Shown one piece after another: positions 3,716 through 55,769 of a stretch of 64,000 nt of DNA (its first letter is position 1; each line of letters starts with the position of its first letter). The translations under genes were made by a program, and so were the position numbers. This stretch comes from Isurus oxyrinchus (taxonomy: Eukaryota): contig JANJGN010000152.1 in assembly GCA_026770705.1 (NCBI GenBank), positions 620,001 to 684,000 of the forward strand, in the 5' to 3' direction. The notes beneath the pieces are model-generated. The model was not told the DNA's origin, did no database searches, and saw only the letters and a program-made list of their open reading frames with translations.

Positions 3716-4274
3716 ATGCACATACGATTGGAAACTGGTCGTACTTACTGTAACTGGCATTCAGTTTAGAGTTCTATGGTCATTATATAGTTACCATTAC
3801 AAAGGTACTTTCGAAGGGCCGTTGATATTCTTTGTTTTGGGAGGACGTGGAGAGGGGAGGGGGCATCAGTCAATTTGAACAGAGCTAATTTCCAAAACTG
3901 CAATGATATAAATGACGAGAGAATTTCTCTCTCACTAAGTGCTGTTGATTGAGAAATAAATGGTGGTGAAATAATGGGGAAGATGCTCTGCTCTTCCGTT
4001 TTAATCCAATGAAAGGTACGTCATTCAGATGACCCAAAATGTTCTCTTTTAGTAATGGGATAGAGGCGGGAAAAGAGGTGTGGGTTTCTAAAGAGGGAAC
4101 CGATAAGTGACGGTCACCAAATGATGGAAATAATAAATGATCAAATGTGGATGTGGGTTTTAGTTGGAATATATTAGGATATATTTATAGTTATTGTCAA
4201 TTTTTGAGTTGTATGGTTACTTAATGATCACAAATCACAGAGTCTAACTTGTTCAATCGGTCATTCTTTCCCAG

Positions 4275-4574
4275 CGACACCGTCTTCGCCCACTCTCTAC
4301 AGCCTGGTCTCCTCCTGTCAGCAACACAACACCGATGGCTCCGTCACCTACGGCTGTTTGGCGATGGATTACTCCCCAGAAATCACCAGCCTGACCTGGA
4401 AGAAAGATGGGCAGCAGATTCCCACTGGATATAAGACTTACCCGTCAGTGAGAAACCAGAAGGGAACCTACACCCTGAGCAGCCAGTTAACCATCACCGA
4501 GTCAGAGGGGGAATGCAGCAAAATCAAGTGTGAGGTTCGACACAGCGGCTCAGACAAGAGCATTGAAATGCAAT
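4275..4574 (+). CDS. IGHM: IgM heavy-chain constant exon CH1
   Basis: Acceptor ttcccag|; reads [45 protein letters not shown]...[16 protein letters not shown]; donor gtaagt at 4575; C1-set Cys/Trp/Cys plus light-chain-pairing Cys. Confidence 0.95.
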
Positions 4575-4786
4575 GTAAGTGTTGGGGAACCTGTGAGAAA
4601 CAGAGGCTGGGAATGACCTGTATAGGGCCTTGGTTATAACACATTTATAGTGCTTTGCATAGATTTGCTCCCTGCAAATTCTCGGTTAGTGTCTATTAAC
4701 GGAAAAGAACCTATAAAAATGTAGGAATTAATTGTATCTGTTATCAATTTATTCTGCAAGAAATGTTTAACCTGTATTTTTTGAAG

Positions 4787-5101
4787 GTCCTCCTGACATC
4801 TTCTCTCCAACTGTTCTCCTCACCGTGAGTTCCCGGGAAGAAATCACAACCAACAAATTTGCAATCGCCGTCTGTTCAATCATCGATTTCCGACCAAATC
4901 CAATCACCGTGAAGTGGCTGAAGAATGGACAACCCATGGATTCAGGAATTGTCACCTCTCCCGCCTTTGAAGTGAATGGGAACTTCTCGGCCACCAGTCG
5001 GCTGAAAGTCTCCGCTGGGGAATGGTTCACCGACGCGGTATATACCTGTCAGGTCACTCACCAAGGGGTCACCCAAAGTCGAAACGCCACCAAGTGTGAG
5101 G
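4787..5101 (+). CDS. IGHM: IgM heavy-chain constant exon CH2
   Basis: Acceptor ttgaag|; [47 protein letters not shown]...[20 protein letters not shown]; donor gtaaga at 5102. Confidence 0.95.
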
Positions 5102-5725
5102 GTAAGAAATACAAACCGAGGAAGCAATAGATCATTCTGCTCTCCGATGTTAATCAAATGAGGAATTTATTGGTGTTAGTAGAAAGCATGGAACAACTTC
5201 CAATTTACTATCATGTAGTCAGTATTTAATTCCGATGTAATGGCTGCATTCGGTTTGTTCACCATTCAGGATTTTATCACATCACGTCTCTGCATTGACG
5301 TCACAGAGTGAGTGAGGTGGACTTGACATCAGCTTTACCCTGAGTCAGCTGATCATGTTTGGAGAGGCAGAAGATGTCTGGAACCCTTCACTGGTAACAG
5401 CTTCGAGATAGAGTGTTGGAAAGTGCATCCACCCTATTTATAAAACAGCTTTCAGTCCTGCATTCCAGGGCCCAGGAATGATACATTTGTATTGGGACTG
5501 GGGCAACGCAGATTCATCAGAATGTTACCGGGGCTGAATGACTTAAATTATGAGAATGATTTACACAGACCAAGCTGGTTTTCCATTGTGTAAAGAAGAT
5601 TTAAGACGATAGTTAGAGGTTGATATGTCCGAGGTGATTTATTCTCCTTTAGAGAATGAAGACTGAACACTGCTGTCCTCATTCTGAAGGTGAAACTTTG
5701 GTTGATATTAATTTCTGTCTCACAG

Positions 5726-6037
5726 GTGATCACCACTGCCACAACGATCCCACAATTACTCTATTGCCACCGCCAATTGAACAGGTCTTACTGGAGGCGA
5801 CGGTGACCTTAACCTGCATCGTTTCTAATGCTCCTTATGGAGTCCTCGTGTCCTGGACACAAGAGAAGAAGCCTTTGAAATCAGAGATCGCCGTCCAACC
5901 GGGAGAAGATCCCGACAGCGTGGTCAGCAACGTAAACATCTCGACACAAGCCTGGCTGAGTGGGGCTGAGTTCTACTGCGTGGTGAGCCATCAGGATCTG
6001 CCGACTCCTTTAAGGAGTTCCATCCACAAGGAACAAG
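5726..6037 (+). CDS. IGHM: IgM heavy-chain constant exon CH3
   Basis: Acceptor ctcacag|; [43 protein letters not shown]...[22 protein letters not shown]; donor gtgagc at 6038. Confidence 0.95.
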
Positions 6038-6429
6038 GTGAGCGGTGAGATTGAAGCAATAAGTGGTTCAATGAATCTATTTCCAGTGTAAGTGTAAGGA
6101 TCAATATTTACTATTCAGTGTACTCATGGTCTACTCTGATGAGCAATTTCGCCAACTAAACGCCCTGGGCATGTGGACTTTCAAGGGGAAATTGATAAGT
6201 AGATGAATGAACGATGAATTGAAGGTTGTGCCATTGGGTTTAGATGAAGCAAGATGGGAGGATCCTGGTGCGAAGCTGTAACACCAACATAGACCAGCTG
6301 GGCAGAATGGCCTGTTTCTGTGCTGTAAACTTTGAGAAACTTTCTCGTCCAACCCCATAAGTTCTCCATGAAAAGGATTGTGCCACCTCTGCTCCGAGCT
6401 GGAAAGCCGGACAGATCCCAAAGTATTTT

Positions 6430-6632
6430 ATTTATTAATTCATGGGATGTGGGCGTCGCTGGCTGGGCCAGAGTTATTGCCCATCCCTAATAGCCCTTGA
6501 CAAGGTGGTGGTGAGCTGCCTTCTTGAACCGCTGCAGTCCATGTGGTGTAGATACACCCACAGTGCTGTTAGGAAGGGAGTCCCAGGATTTTGATTCAGT
6601 TATAGTGAAGGATCGGTGATATATTTCCAAGA
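6430..6632 (-). mobile_element. 3' end of a common shark LINE/SINE family in CH3-CH4 intron
   Basis: catgggatgtgggcgtcgctggctgggcca...gcccatccctaa; homologous to 51590-51930 and 56350-56990. Confidence 0.7.
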
Positions 6633-6751
6633 AGTGGATAATGAAAAACCTTAATATTCATCACAAAACACGTTTCTCTCACATCTAACCAGCAGTTTCA
6701 TTATCTACGAAAGTATCCAGTTTGTTGACATTTATTGTACATTTTCTGCAG

Positions 6752-7143
6752 TTAAAGACCCGCGGGAACCGTCCGTGTCTGTCCTCCTGCCCTCGGCAGA
6801 AGATGTCTCCGCTCAGAGATTTGTCTCCCTCAGCTGCTTAGTGAGAGGTTTCTCCCCACGAGAGATTTTCGTCAAGTGGACCGTCAATGACAAGCCGGTG
6901 GATCCCGGAAACTACAAGAACACTGAGGTAGTGGCGGAGAACGGCAATCGCTCCTTCTTCATGTACAGCCTGTTATCCATTGCAGCAGAGGAGTGGGCCA
7001 GCGGAGCTTCTTACTCCTGTGTGGTGGGACATGAAGCGATCCCCTTGAAGATCATCAACAGAACTGTTGATAAATCCAGCGGTAAACCGAGTTTTGTGAA
7101 CATTTCCCTTGCACTGATGGACACCGTTAATTCATGTCAATGA
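6752..7143 (+). CDS. IGHM: IgM CH4 plus secretory tailpiece
   Basis: Acceptor ttctgcag|; [14 protein letters not shown]...[22 protein letters not shown], then [20 protein letters not shown] with N-glycan site and penultimate Cys; internal donor g|gtaaac at 7082 for the membrane form. Confidence 0.96.
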
Positions 7144-10185: not shown

Positions 10186-10313
10186 ATTCCACAGACCGTA
10201 TCTGGACTGAAGACTCTGAGGATGATAACGGCAACATCTGGACAACCGCTTCTACATTCATCATCCTGTTCTTCCTGAGCATTTTCTACAGCACTGCCGT
10301 CACTCTGGCGAAG
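10186..10313 (+). CDS. IGHM: IgM membrane exon TM1
   Basis: Acceptor ccccgtag|; DSTDRIWTEDSEDDNGNIWTTASTFIILFFLSIFYSTAVTLAK with conserved antigen-receptor TM motif; phase matches CH4 donor; donor gtgaga at 10314 (alternative in-frame acceptor at 10194 possible). Confidence 0.93.
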
Positions 10314-10451
10314 GTGAGAAGATTCAATCCACTCACACTTCAAACTGACAGAAGCAGTTTGAAAAATCTCTCAATGTTTCATTGATTAAAACTCTAACAT
10401 AAATGTCCTAGATCAAAACAACCTGCTTCATTATTTCATCTTCTTTTACAG

Positions 10452-31566: not shown

Positions 31567-31750
31567 CTGTATCACTGTATCTGGAATCCCCACTTTGTTC
31601 ACGTTTTCATAGAGCTCTTTCCGCGCTTTGTATCTCTATGTGTCTGTAATCCCACCATGTTCAAGTTTTTGTACAGCTCTCTCCGTGCTCTGTATCACTA
31701 TGTGTCTGTAATCCCACCATGTTCAGGTTTCTGAACAGCTCTCTCCGTGA
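31567..31750. repeat. ~60-bp tandem repeat running into the gap
   Basis: Three copies of tgtatcactatgtgtctgtaatcccaccatgttca...cagctctctccgtg. Confidence 0.85.
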
Positions 31751-31752
31751 TC

Positions 31753-31841
31753 TAACCCTGAACATTCACAGCTTCAAGTAATGGTGTCACCGACAGCAGA
31801 TGTTTGTAGAGGCGGGCACTAAGACACCAGGGAACTGGAAT
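31753..31841 (-). pseudogene. Leaderless supporting TCR-delta V of NAR-TCR, 5' fragment
   Basis: Acceptor ttttattctccag| then DSSSLVS*CPPLQTSAVGDTIT*SCECSGL; no leader exon nearby; phase matches upstream J; truncated by satellite. Confidence 0.7.
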
Positions 31842-33240
31842 CTGGAGAATAAAAAAAACGAACATTAATTGTTTGTTTAGCCATGGTTTACCTGGGAGAA
31901 TTTGTCAATGACATGAAACGTTCGTTTTTCTAAACTTGAAGCAAGCCTGTTCCAACCGTATTCACCATCATTGAGATGTGATTAAGTGCAGAGATGATAA
32001 TTTTCTTTTGCATCGAGAATTTTTCCAATCTGCACTGCGCGGTCAGAATGGGTGGTGCGAACAGACTCAGTGGGAACTTTCAAATGGCTAATGTACCTAT
32101 ACTACAACAGGAAAAATGGTAAAAATTGGATTGCACTTTGAAAGTGATAGCACCTCCACGATGGGCCGAATGTCATTCTACCTCTTGGCATGGTTCTATG
32201 TTGTATATTACATTTCTGCTTCTATTTTCCTTGGTGAGTGACACCCCGATGGAACATTTATTATCAGTATGGCAATCAGTTTCCAAAAAATGATTGTATG
32301 GGACAATCAGCATCAGCATCACTGTGCAAAGCATGATCGAAATGAAAGTGATTGTGATTAATCAGCATTGATTGAAACTTCTCTCTTCCCCATTCTAATG
32401 GCCGACCCCTTATGCTGAAACTATGGCTCCCAGTTATAGACTTTCCAACCTGAGGAAACTCCCACCTAGAACCTTCCCTCGCAAGCTTCTTAAAGATATC
32501 ATGTGTTCTCATGAGATCGCCCTCATTACTGTAAACTCCAGGGAACACAGGTCCAGTCTACTCAATCCCTTCCCATAGGACAATCCCTTTACTTCAGGAA
32601 TCAGTCTGATGAACATTTGTTCCAAAGCATGTACAACCTTCCCTAAGTTAGATACCAGACTTTACACAGCATTCCAAACTGGAGTCCTTCTCTCCATAAA
32701 CATTGCCCACCACCCTTTGCTCGGATTGTACTTTGAACAGCCCAGAGATCATCCAATCCTTCTCTCCCATTCGATGAATTATTTCTTGCTGGTTCTAAAT
32801 GAACATTCTCTCAGTTTATAATTTTTTCCTTATGTCCCTGTTCTCCTTTATAAGATTAATGCATCATCCTCACTCTCTCACTGCACTTTGCGTTTTTAAT
32901 TCACAGTAATCAGGGATACAGAGAAATTACAGCAATCCCATCTCTCAAACATTGACATTCAATAAAGAGAAATGTCTGCAGTTCCAAACTTTCACATTTC
33001 GATCTGAGGATGGAAAAGGAGGAAATGATTGGGTATATGAAGACAATTGAAACAAATGGCGGGTAAATGACCCGACTGTCCGATCATACCCTATTCCTAA
33101 ATCGAAGCCTGCAATGGAAAAGGTCCCTTAGAAATCGTTTTTTTTAGTTTCGATGTGATTGAAACGATGTTGATCACAAGAAGCTGACTGTGAACAATAT
33201 CCAGCACAGTCTGCAACATGCGGGCTTCAGAGTCACTTAT

Positions 33241-35835: not shown

Positions 35836-36339
35836 AATGTTTGTATCCCGGGAAGCCGAGGCCAGTCGCTGTGTAACGTAGTACTGAGCTTTACAGTAAT
35901 AGGTGGTAGTGCCTTCAACTCTCACATCCCAAATTTCCAACGAAAATGTATTTTCTGTTTTATCCATTGACACAAACAATGTCCCCCCGCTGGAGATCCG
36001 CTCCCGCTCTGCTCCGGTCTGGGTTTGTCTGATGAAAAGCACCGTTTGGACAATATCCCAATAACCAGCGTGGAAAACACAGGTAATGGTGAGAGACTGA
36101 CATTACTTCCTGGTCACCGCTGCCGGGGTTTGTGTCACTGCTGACTGAAAACTCCTGGAAATTAAACAGAGATAGTTTCATGGACCATCGGAGCCGAATC
36201 ACAGAACCGGGTTAAACCCCCTGTCTGTAATTGGGATGGACTCGGGCAGCCTTATATGAAATCCACATAATGTCTGTTTGTGTGATCGGTACTCACGGGG
36301 TAAACAGACACACAGGGTGAAAACAAAGTGGATTCCCAT
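35836..36339 (-). pseudogene. NAR-TCR V segment: leader 36297-36339, V exon 35874-36154, RSS 35836-35873
   Basis: Leader MGIHFVFTLCVCLP; V reads VTQTPAAVTRK*CQSLTITCVFHAGYWDIVQTVLFIRQTQTGAERERISSGGTLFVSMDKTENTFSLEIWDVRVEGTTTYYCKAQYY (NAR-type, no CDR2, ERISxGG, YYCK, extra FR1 Cys); RSS CACAGCG-22-ACAAACATT; one stop and one frameshift. Confidence 0.88.
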
Positions 36340-44745: not shown

Positions 44746-45260
44746 ATGTTGTCTGTTCATTCTTCACAGCTGCGATTCTCTTAACTGGTAAATTGCAAAG
44801 TTACGCAATTTTCATTTTGCAGGTTATACTGGCACAGTGATCTTCCTTTTAACTATGTTTCCTTTATTTGTAAAGGGCTCCGTTAACATGATAACCCTGA
44901 TTGTAACAGTGATAATAAGAAGTTGAAGTTCTGTACTTTGAATTTTCTGCAGACTCGGTGTTACAGGAGCCGGTTGCAGGGGCACAGTTTGAAGGAGACT
45001 CGCTGACCATTAATTTCAGCTATTCGACCACGTTTGGTTTCTGCTTATTGCAACTGTACCATCAGGAAGGCGAAAAAGCCCCCACAATATTGACCTGTAA
45101 CCGCAGAGGGCGCGGGGACTCGATTATCCGCATCTCTCGACACTTTCAGAAGTGAGGAGAATTTCACCAACCGCGACCTGCGGCTGCCTGACAGCGCAGT
45201 GTATTACTGCGGGCTGAGAGACACAGTGACAGGAACCAGACGGAGCCTTCCTCGTAGAGG
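44746..45260 (+). pseudogene. TCR alpha/delta V pseudogene (leader 44746-44787, V 44953-45221)
   Basis: DSVLQEPVAGAQFEGDSLTINFSYSTT...LQLYHQ.GEKAPT...SAVYYCGLR; CACAGTG at 45222-45228; frameshifts, nonamer decayed. Confidence 0.85.
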
Positions 45261-54686: not shown

Positions 54687-54725
54687 TGTTTTTGTACGGC
54701 GCCCCTTCTGGTCCCTGTCACTGTG
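54687..54725 (-). promoter_or_regulatory. Near-consensus 23-bp-spacer RSS
   Basis: CACAGTG-23 bp-ACAAAAACA. Confidence 0.92.
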
Positions 54726-55241
54726 TCTCTCAGTCCGCAGTAATACACCGGGCTGTCAGACAGCCGCAGGTCACTGATGGTGAAATTCCCCTCACTTTTC
54801 GAAGTGTCGAGAGATCCAGAAAATCGAGTCCCCACGTCCCTTGCCCTGAAAACATTTGCATAATTCGGGATGTAGATTAAGAATGTGGGGGCTTTACCCC
54901 AGTGCTGACAGTATAACTGTAAGGAATATCTAGTAGCAATGGTGGAATAGCTGTAATGAATGGTCAGCGAGTTTCCTTCAAACTGCATCTCTGCATCTGA
55001 CCCACGTGAGACCGAGTCTGCACCACTTACTCCTGCAGAAATTAAAAATTAAGGAACTTTAAGATTTTATTACTTTATCCCAGTTTATTAGGTTAAGTGA
55101 GGGAACACATTCTAAATAGGAATAAGACTGAATTTTAAAAAAATATTAATGTTACCTGCAAGAGGAAATCCTATAACTAGTAGACTTACCGGGTAAGAGA
55201 GCTGCAACTGTGAGAAATGAATAAAAAATAAAACCCAACAT
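54726..55241 (-). CDS. TCR alpha/delta V segment with open frame (leader 55190-55241, V 54726-55032); lacks canonical Cys23 and Trp41
   Basis: MLGFIFYSFLTVAALLP|gtaagt...ttctgcag|GVSGADSVSRGSDAEMQFEGNSLTIHYSYSTIATRYSLQLYCQHWGKAPTFLIYIP...RFSGSLDTSKSEGNFTISDLRLSDSPVYYCGLR; no stop or frameshift. Confidence 0.8.
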
Positions 55242-55769
55242 ATTTACAGCGAGCTAATGGCGGATTGAAACAGGACAGGTTGAATCTGTAAATGTTTCAG
55301 TGAAGGGTTGGGATGATTTTCATTTGTACTCGGTCTCTTCAGCCATTGGTTAATTTCTGAAAGTCTCAAGAAGTGGTGTCCAATCAGCTGCACACACGTT
55401 GTTTGCGTCAGAGCGTGGTGCAGCAAATCAGCGAAGTCTTCGTCCCCCCCAAGGGGACTGAGCCGAGGATTGAACTGAATTCTGGTTCACTCGCAGAGTC
55501 AGTGTGAAGTGGTGGCAGTGAGGGGGAATAGTTAATGTTCTCTTTAATGTTGTCCACAATGCCGGAGACTCGCATTAAAAGAACTGCTCACTGACCATGG
55601 GAAATTCGCACAGCTGATATTAATTGGAATATTAAACAGATGGACAATAATGGGGTCTGCAACACAGAAATGTGCAATTTCACATAACTAGTCTTTACTT
55701 TGGTTTCTGTTCCGTTAACAGTTCAGGGTCAAAACTGATTCAATGAAAAAAAAGTGAGAGCTTTCTGTG

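Follow-up and report, generated by a model that had tools for sequence, protein, structure and literature searches.

A V segment without Cys23 and Trp41 behind an IgM cluster of Isurus oxyrinchus is a probable copy of the shark TCR alpha V10 family

The stretch of DNA analysed here (64 kb, C152:620001-684000, called the window throughout) carries the constant exons of an IgM cluster and, 3' of C-mu and on the opposite strand, a V segment (Table 1). The IgM cluster looks complete, with VH, D1, D2, an in-frame JH, C-mu1-4 and a TM exon, and the IgM exons together with NAR-TCR cassettes and the best protein matches indicate a shark-type antigen receptor region. An earlier sequence-only reading of the window had described the V segment as having an intact leader, intact splice sites, an open frame and a 23-spacer recombination signal (RSS), and all of these were confirmed on the minus strand at 54687-55241. 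The segment has the architecture of TCR alpha/delta V genes (leader exon, intron, V exon, 23-RSS), the spliced leader and V exon form an open frame of 119 codons, and the RSS, with one mismatch, is the top-ranked of three RSS-like sites within the 64-kb window. No octamer was found in the 360 nt upstream of the V leader. The V also proved to be the sole near-intact one among pseudogenes, as that reading had it, with one intact segment among the nine V-like segments detected in the window. Translation continuing past the RSS was ruled out as a product, the DNA downstream not being conserved between subfamilies.

Table 1. Features of the V segment and of the neighbouring IgM cluster (positions are those of the window unless a contig is named)
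Feature	Position	Strand	Remarks
VH, D1, D2, JH of the same IgM cluster	C152:612111-613700		6-8 kb before the window
IgM C-mu1 to C-mu4 and secretory tail	4262..7140	+	
IgM transmembrane exon	10230..10335	+	bounds approximate
Broken paralog, V10-like family	44926..45260	+	Phe23/Leu41; acceptor deletion; 23-nt V deletion; nonamer lost
23-spacer recombination signal CACAGTG-23-ACAAAAACA	54687..54725	-	heptamer 54725-54719, nonamer 54695-54687
V exon	54726..55032	-	307 nt, AG acceptor, open; TCR alpha/delta V-set, nurse-shark-V10-like family
Cys104 codon TGC	54737..54739	-	partner Cys absent
Gly-Asn-Phe-Thr, strand E	54779..54790	-	family-specific Gly87 and Phe89; N-glycosylation sequon (glycosylation predicted)
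Cys codon TGT at position 43 (FR2)	54908..54910	-	
Leu codon TTA at the Trp41 position	54914..54916	-	
Tyr codon TAC at the Cys23 position	54953..54955	-	
Leader-V intron	55033..55189	-	GT...AG, 157 nt
Leader exon	55190..55241	-	52 nt, ATG, GT donor
Promoter-like motifs (putative)	55345..55410	-	TGACG half-site, E-box, CCAAT

The V exon matches the Pfam V-set profile (E=9e-8), and its closest matches outside its own family are TCR alpha/delta-type V from sharks, chimaera, coelacanth and teleosts. Position numbering was fixed by an alignment (A5) with 69 canonical V domains, mostly teleost, and the codons and this alignment together confirm the Tyr for Cys23, the Leu for Trp41 and the Cys in FR2 that had drawn attention to the segment; the canonical domains have Cys in 69/69 at the Tyr column and Trp in 68/69 at the Leu column. 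Of the IMGT-type features of a functional V, the segment thus lacks Cys23 and Trp41 and retains the hydrophobic residue at 89 (Phe89) and the second Cys, Cys104. Two other identities were considered and ruled out. Supporting V-delta segments of NAR-TCR have no leader exon and pair with an upstream NAR V; the window V owns a leader exon, and the supporting V segments of this region are of another family, with Cys23 and Trp41. A VpreB-type surrogate chain, which does not rearrange and is without an RSS, does not fit a V whose RSS is present and conserved, and the VpreB top match in Foldseek is a length effect, since the V lacks the J strand and many VH/VL matches score alike.

The missing residues are a trait of a whole gene family. 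A search of the 4.98-Gb genome of Isurus oxyrinchus gave 41 matches by DNA and 62 by protein, which were merged with the broken paralog at 45 kb of the window into 63 analysed copies, a lower bound in which haplotype duplicates are possible. The copies are spread over contigs C26, C140, C151, C152, C242 and C301, and the 52-nt leader length is common to the 43 that have a full V exon. None of the 63 carries Cys at position 23 (Tyr in 39, Phe in 22, Asp in one and a stop in one) or Trp at position 41, which is Leu in every copy through four different Leu codons, while Cys104 is retained in 60 and the strand-E Asn-Phe-Thr sequon in 53. Leader, splice, frame and RSS checks were passed by 32 copies, a share similar to that of the canonical neighbour V family (15 intact among the 30 copies fetched, of 40 listed), and most of the remaining 31 make up one dead subfamily. 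Three copies (L088, L098 and L105), among them the one on the TCR alpha-delta contig, form a V10-like subfamily with a 3-nt insertion in CDR1.

Family members from two other sharks show the same trait. Only two sequences of the family came out of a protein profile search over 1.84 billion representatives and a word search. Both are gene models of the bamboo shark Chiloscyllium punctatum and 58-66% identical, one with Phe23 and Leu41 (GCC45228.1) and one with Phe23 and Val41 (GCC20152.1); a single-sequence protein search gave no candidate. In the nurse shark, both residues are lacking in 45/45 TRA V10 cDNAs when the V parts in the accessible source data of Ott et al. 2018 (PMC5931798) are read by eye, with TAC at 23 and CTA at 41 in the 43 aV10.1 clones and TTT at 23 and TTC at 41 in the two aV10.2 clones. 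The aV10.2 clones, with Phe at both positions and no clear Cys104 in their visible part, are diverged or broken, yet transcribed. Short contigs from sequencing runs, whose type is a guess, show Leu41 (X2, X5) or Tyr23 (X4) and are without a V-J joint, and they carry no weight on expression.

These counts bear directly on the possibility, raised by the sequence-only reading, that the V is a young pseudogene. Viewed in isolation, the window copy does bear the usual marks of decay, but a recent loss of Cys23 and Trp41 by this copy in the course of pseudogene decay is extremely improbable when neither residue occurs in any copy or ortholog found (0/63, 0/2 in bamboo shark, 0/45 in nurse shark). 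The FR2 Cys does not compensate for the loss either. It arises by a CGT>TGT change in 11/63 copies from at least three lineages and is not present in the nurse shark or bamboo shark family sequences, which marks it as a CpG hot spot and rules out a replacement disulfide.

The nurse shark cDNAs also show what such segments are used for. According to the parts of PMC5931798 that were available, they were amplified with a V10-leader primer and a C-alpha primer, 45 V10 clones have a complete CDR3-J, of which 27 are unique, and 13 V10 clones were used for hypermutation analysis, among clones called in frame and stop-free; the clone labels give thymus and spiral valve (gut) as tissues. As products of V10-specific PCR in a different species, these cDNAs give no repertoire frequency. 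The window V shares with nurse shark TRA V10 the Tyr23, Leu41 and Cys104 residues, the FR2-CDR2 and strand-E motifs and the Cys-Gly end, with 57/96 residues identical to aV10.1 by hand count. It differs in that Isurus oxyrinchus has at least 63 germline copies placed among IgM clusters and that the window copy additionally carries Cys43 and Pro100. On these likenesses, the window V appears to belong to the orthologous family of nurse shark TRA V10, a cross-species assignment that is distinct from formal membership under the rule of 85% nucleotide identity within a species given in the same paper.

The V10 family has already been sequenced, its cDNAs are public, and its lack of Cys23 and Trp41 seems to have gone unremarked in the literature searched. 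The accessible main text of PMC5931798 has no match for 'disulfide' or 'tryptophan' and does not discuss the missing residues there, the available parts of PMC13193013, PMC5192425 and PMC3430242 hold nothing on a V10-like family, and the searched part of the PMC10322711 supplements holds no V sequence matching the family. PMC10322711 names a public TCR-alpha repertoire of the bamboo shark (PRJNA865512, PRJNA865921). A literature search returned no report of a shark V family without Cys23 and Trp41; Criscitiello 2010, Deiss 2019 and Ott 2020/2021 may mention V10.

We consider it likely that the window V is an intact-looking copy of the nurse shark TRA V10 family that joins to J-alpha through its 23-RSS and gives an alpha chain with a V domain predicted to fold in the absence of the canonical disulfide. 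In the proposed pathway, the first two steps are visible as a conserved 23-RSS on the germline V and as nurse shark V10 cDNAs with V joined to J-alpha and C-alpha spliced on, and the same V-J-alpha joining and C-alpha splicing would take place in Isurus oxyrinchus.

The V10-like family is under constraint, with purifying selection on frameworks and RSS. Across 34 unique copies, drawn from the 43 whose leader and V exon are full-length (omission of the other 20 biases the set towards open frames), the overall omega came to 0.705 (2dlnL 9.2 vs 1), and tree lengths rose from 1.22 for codon positions 1+2 to 1.66 for position 3 and 2.34 for the intron. The RSS behaved in the same way (0.67 for heptamer plus nonamer vs 1.66 for the spacer), and a single gap pattern, of 3 nt, was seen in the V exon vs 24 in the intron. 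Codon models for the 25 unique intact copies gave omega values of 0.59 for the frameworks (2dlnL 11.3) and 0.95 for the CDRs, the latter from an unstable fit. The dead subfamily had an omega of 1.39, which is not significant. In the canonical control family, omega was 0.94 for intact and 0.84 for broken members, neither significant, and this shows that omega by itself is poor at telling live from dead genes and that the test is blunt. The sequence-only reading had looked to ortholog Cys23 and dN/dS to settle the status of its V; no ortholog with Cys23 was found, and family and framework omega are as given here.

Constraint of this kind also speaks to whether the family makes a protein at all. 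It could be rearranged and transcribed without yielding a stable protein and be kept by duplication and by selection on the RSS or promoter, and the overall omega of 0.70 is indeed just moderately under 1, and the family is without two of the three residues (Cys23, Trp41 and Cys104) by which functional V domains are defined, according to the sections of PMC6945721 at hand. We hold this to be unlikely, however, since the open frames, the rarity of exon indels, the framework omega of 0.59, the conservation of Cys104 and Leu41 in three species and the peripheral nurse shark clones, in frame, clonally expanded and hypermutated in the accessible material, all argue for selection on the protein.

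How such a protein may fold is suggested by other changes in its core. In nine family rows compared with the 69 canonical V domains, Tyr/Phe for Cys23 and Leu/Val for Trp41 are accompanied by Gly at about IMGT 87, Phe at 89 (Leu in 69/69 canonical domains), Ile in place of Leu at two sites and a Gly following Cys104, and Phe89, Gly87 and the two Ile residues are absent or rare among the canonical domains. That core positions such as 87 and 89 changed jointly makes a repacked core likely. With an aromatic lost from strand C and gained on strand B, the core volume stays roughly constant, judging by side-chain volumes. The aromatic at 23 would occupy the space vacated by Trp41>Leu, Gly87 would give room, and Phe89 would pack against aromatic 23, while Cys104 would remain as a buried free thiol and the strand-E N-glycan may contribute stability. 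Modelling without the canonical disulfide, which the earlier reading had proposed, came out divided: AlphaFold gave a V-set model at pLDDT 89 from a mixed alignment that included the 69 canonical rows but a pLDDT of only 43 from the family-only alignment, and the higher value, dependent as it is on the canonical rows, indicates compatibility with the V-set fold and not stability. The V10-like V domain is thus predicted to fold without the canonical disulfide, likely with a repacked core.

The N-terminal V-set folds of CD2, CD58 and CEACAM function without the B-F disulfide; they are non-rearranging adhesion domains, whereas the window V is an antigen-receptor V segment. The ABPC48 (A48) VH is described, in what was available of PMC5734687, as a natural functional V domain without one conserved cysteine. 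ABPC48 is a single antibody with one Cys missing, in contrast to a multi-copy germline family found in several sharks that is also without Trp41 and has further core changes. With two of the three defining residues missing from a conserved and expressed family, the disulfide is probably dispensable for the stability of an antigen-receptor V, and the family offers a natural core design that can be tested for antibody fragments needing to fold in the reducing cytoplasm. Annotation rules would class V10-like genes as ORF or pseudogene. A more far-reaching reading, to which we give somewhat less than an even chance, is that sharks keep, and Isurus oxyrinchus has amplified to dozens of copies, a dedicated TCR-alpha lineage with a disulfide-free and Trp41-free V (Tyr/Phe23, Leu41, Gly87, Phe89, free Cys104, strand-E glycan) that is thymically selected, hypermutating and unrecognised in print. 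The question raised is which T cells use V10 chains.

The state of the family and that of the window copy are separate matters, and the chances that this copy is itself still used are about even. The lineage of the window copy cannot be told from neutral evolution (subclade omega 1.12, not significant, in a low-powered set of seven sequences), and selection on the copy may be relaxed. The family could be a live TCR-alpha family of which the window copy is a recent duplicate, its decay just setting in within a distant array rich in IgM, a scenario that falls just short of an even chance and is compatible with our best explanation at the family level. Besides the subclade omega, it draws on the changes private to the copy, namely Gln6>Arg and a CDR2 Gly>Ala (both at residues on which 19/19 other intact sequences agree), Ala100>Pro and Arg43>Cys, on close sister copies (L007-L009) without working acceptor and heptamer, on the death of 8/9 V segments in the window and on three places in the assembly that are 100% identical across 571 nt. 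However, the leader, splice sites, frame and RSS of the window copy are all intact, its four departures from conserved residues lie within the range of 0-9 seen in other intact members, and the subclade test has little power.

The setting of the V next to an IgM cluster is shared with many of its relatives. On C26 and its sister contigs, V10-like copies are interspersed with at least 40 copies of C-mu4, and the same spacing of 48-49 kb between V and C-mu4 recurs on C140, C26 and C151, which points to a single block that has been duplicated; joint duplication of V arrays and IgM clusters would account for the position of the V behind C-mu. Polarity is mixed across the array, both for the 40 V-like segments in 264 kb (20+/20-) and for the V10-like family on C26 (26+/15-), so that an inverted placement behind C-mu is not special. 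Interleaved TCR V and IgM clusters have been described for elasmobranchs, and the relevant sections of that account (Flajnik et al. 2025, PMC12227049), so far as available, single out no V family without Cys23 and Trp41.

Contig C242 carries the TCR alpha-delta core, all of it on the plus strand. D-delta is located at 590155, C-delta at 617 kb and the C-alpha TM exon at 752 kb, and the core also includes J-delta segments and 16 J-alpha in which an FGxG motif is visible. The C-alpha TM exon was located with the C-delta TM, as Pfam PF09291 matched no TCR-alpha C, nor any control. An intact V10-like copy is found at C242:131955(-), 458 kb from D-delta, and the contig further holds an IgM cluster, NAR-TCR cassettes and TCR-type V of both polarities (33-/30+). 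The linkage to D-delta, J-alpha and C-alpha is that of the C242 copy, C152 being unjoined to C242 in this assembly.

The sequence-only reading had likened the window V to inverted V genes such as TRDV3 and TRBV30 and proposed that it joins by inversion to a 12-RSS D of the IgM cluster to give a TCR-V/IgM-C chimera. The likeness holds for a 23-RSS V that is inverted and 3' of a constant gene (PMC6945721, part available), but TRDV3 and TRBV30 are lone V genes directly behind their own TCR C, whereas the window V follows an IgM C and is part of a mixed-polarity array. The geometry of the proposal stands: the 12-RSS of IgM D1, 61.9 kb away, faces the same way as the 23-RSS of the V, so that inversional joining would be legal under the 12/23 rule. 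The IgM cluster looks complete, thymocytes of sharks carry partly rearranged IgH loci (PMC2435157), and chimeras of the reverse type are known (PMC12227049), as far as the accessible text of both sources goes. The chimera as the purpose of the arrangement is not supported, given the expression of the nurse shark family with J-alpha/C-alpha and the mixed polarity. The available portion of PMC2435157 reports that nurse shark IgM rearranges only inside a minilocus and that IgH transcripts are absent from thymocytes, and the nurse shark V10 cDNAs carry C-alpha, though C-alpha primers cannot show C-mu. No V-J-C chain with a family V was found among 7899 longer proteins scored with the profile, a weak and in fact uninformative test, as the nurse shark V10 chains were missed too. 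As a rare by-product, the IgM chimera is geometrically possible; that the V regularly inverts onto the D1 12-RSS of the adjoining cluster to make a chimeric chain we regard as very unlikely.

Several further features of the region were seen. The VH RSS of the window's IgM cluster is weak (C152:612414-612451; heptamer CACAGCG, nonamer with about three mismatches), and judged from this signal the cluster may rearrange poorly. A second C-delta gene lies amid IgM clusters at C26:29899676-29934158 (L032, L033, L039-L042), with IgH-like V and NAR-TCR cassettes upstream; in contrast to C242, no J-alpha array is found in the 40 kb behind it, and the C-delta exons of the two contigs differ at several residues. 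On C242, positions 380000-550000 hold a long tandem of cassettes of NAR-TCR V plus supporting V, almost all in the orientation opposite to D-delta and C-delta, so that their joining would need inversion, and an IgH-like V with a 23-RSS sits immediately 5' of D-delta (C242:584692-584991(+)), which fits the use of TAILV/IgHV in TCR-delta. A short V family (LLCRLLG...FHWY), unlike the other TCR V families and with some copies open, is repeated by the D-delta region (C242:558417-581355; C26:29862515 and 29937356). Behind a supporting V at C152:729301-729427(-) there are two perfect 23-RSS, 126 nt apart, probably from a local duplication. Within the window, decayed remnants of NAR-TCR V and supporting V lie between C-mu and the TCR V pseudogenes, at 35887-36171(-) and 31645-31842(-).
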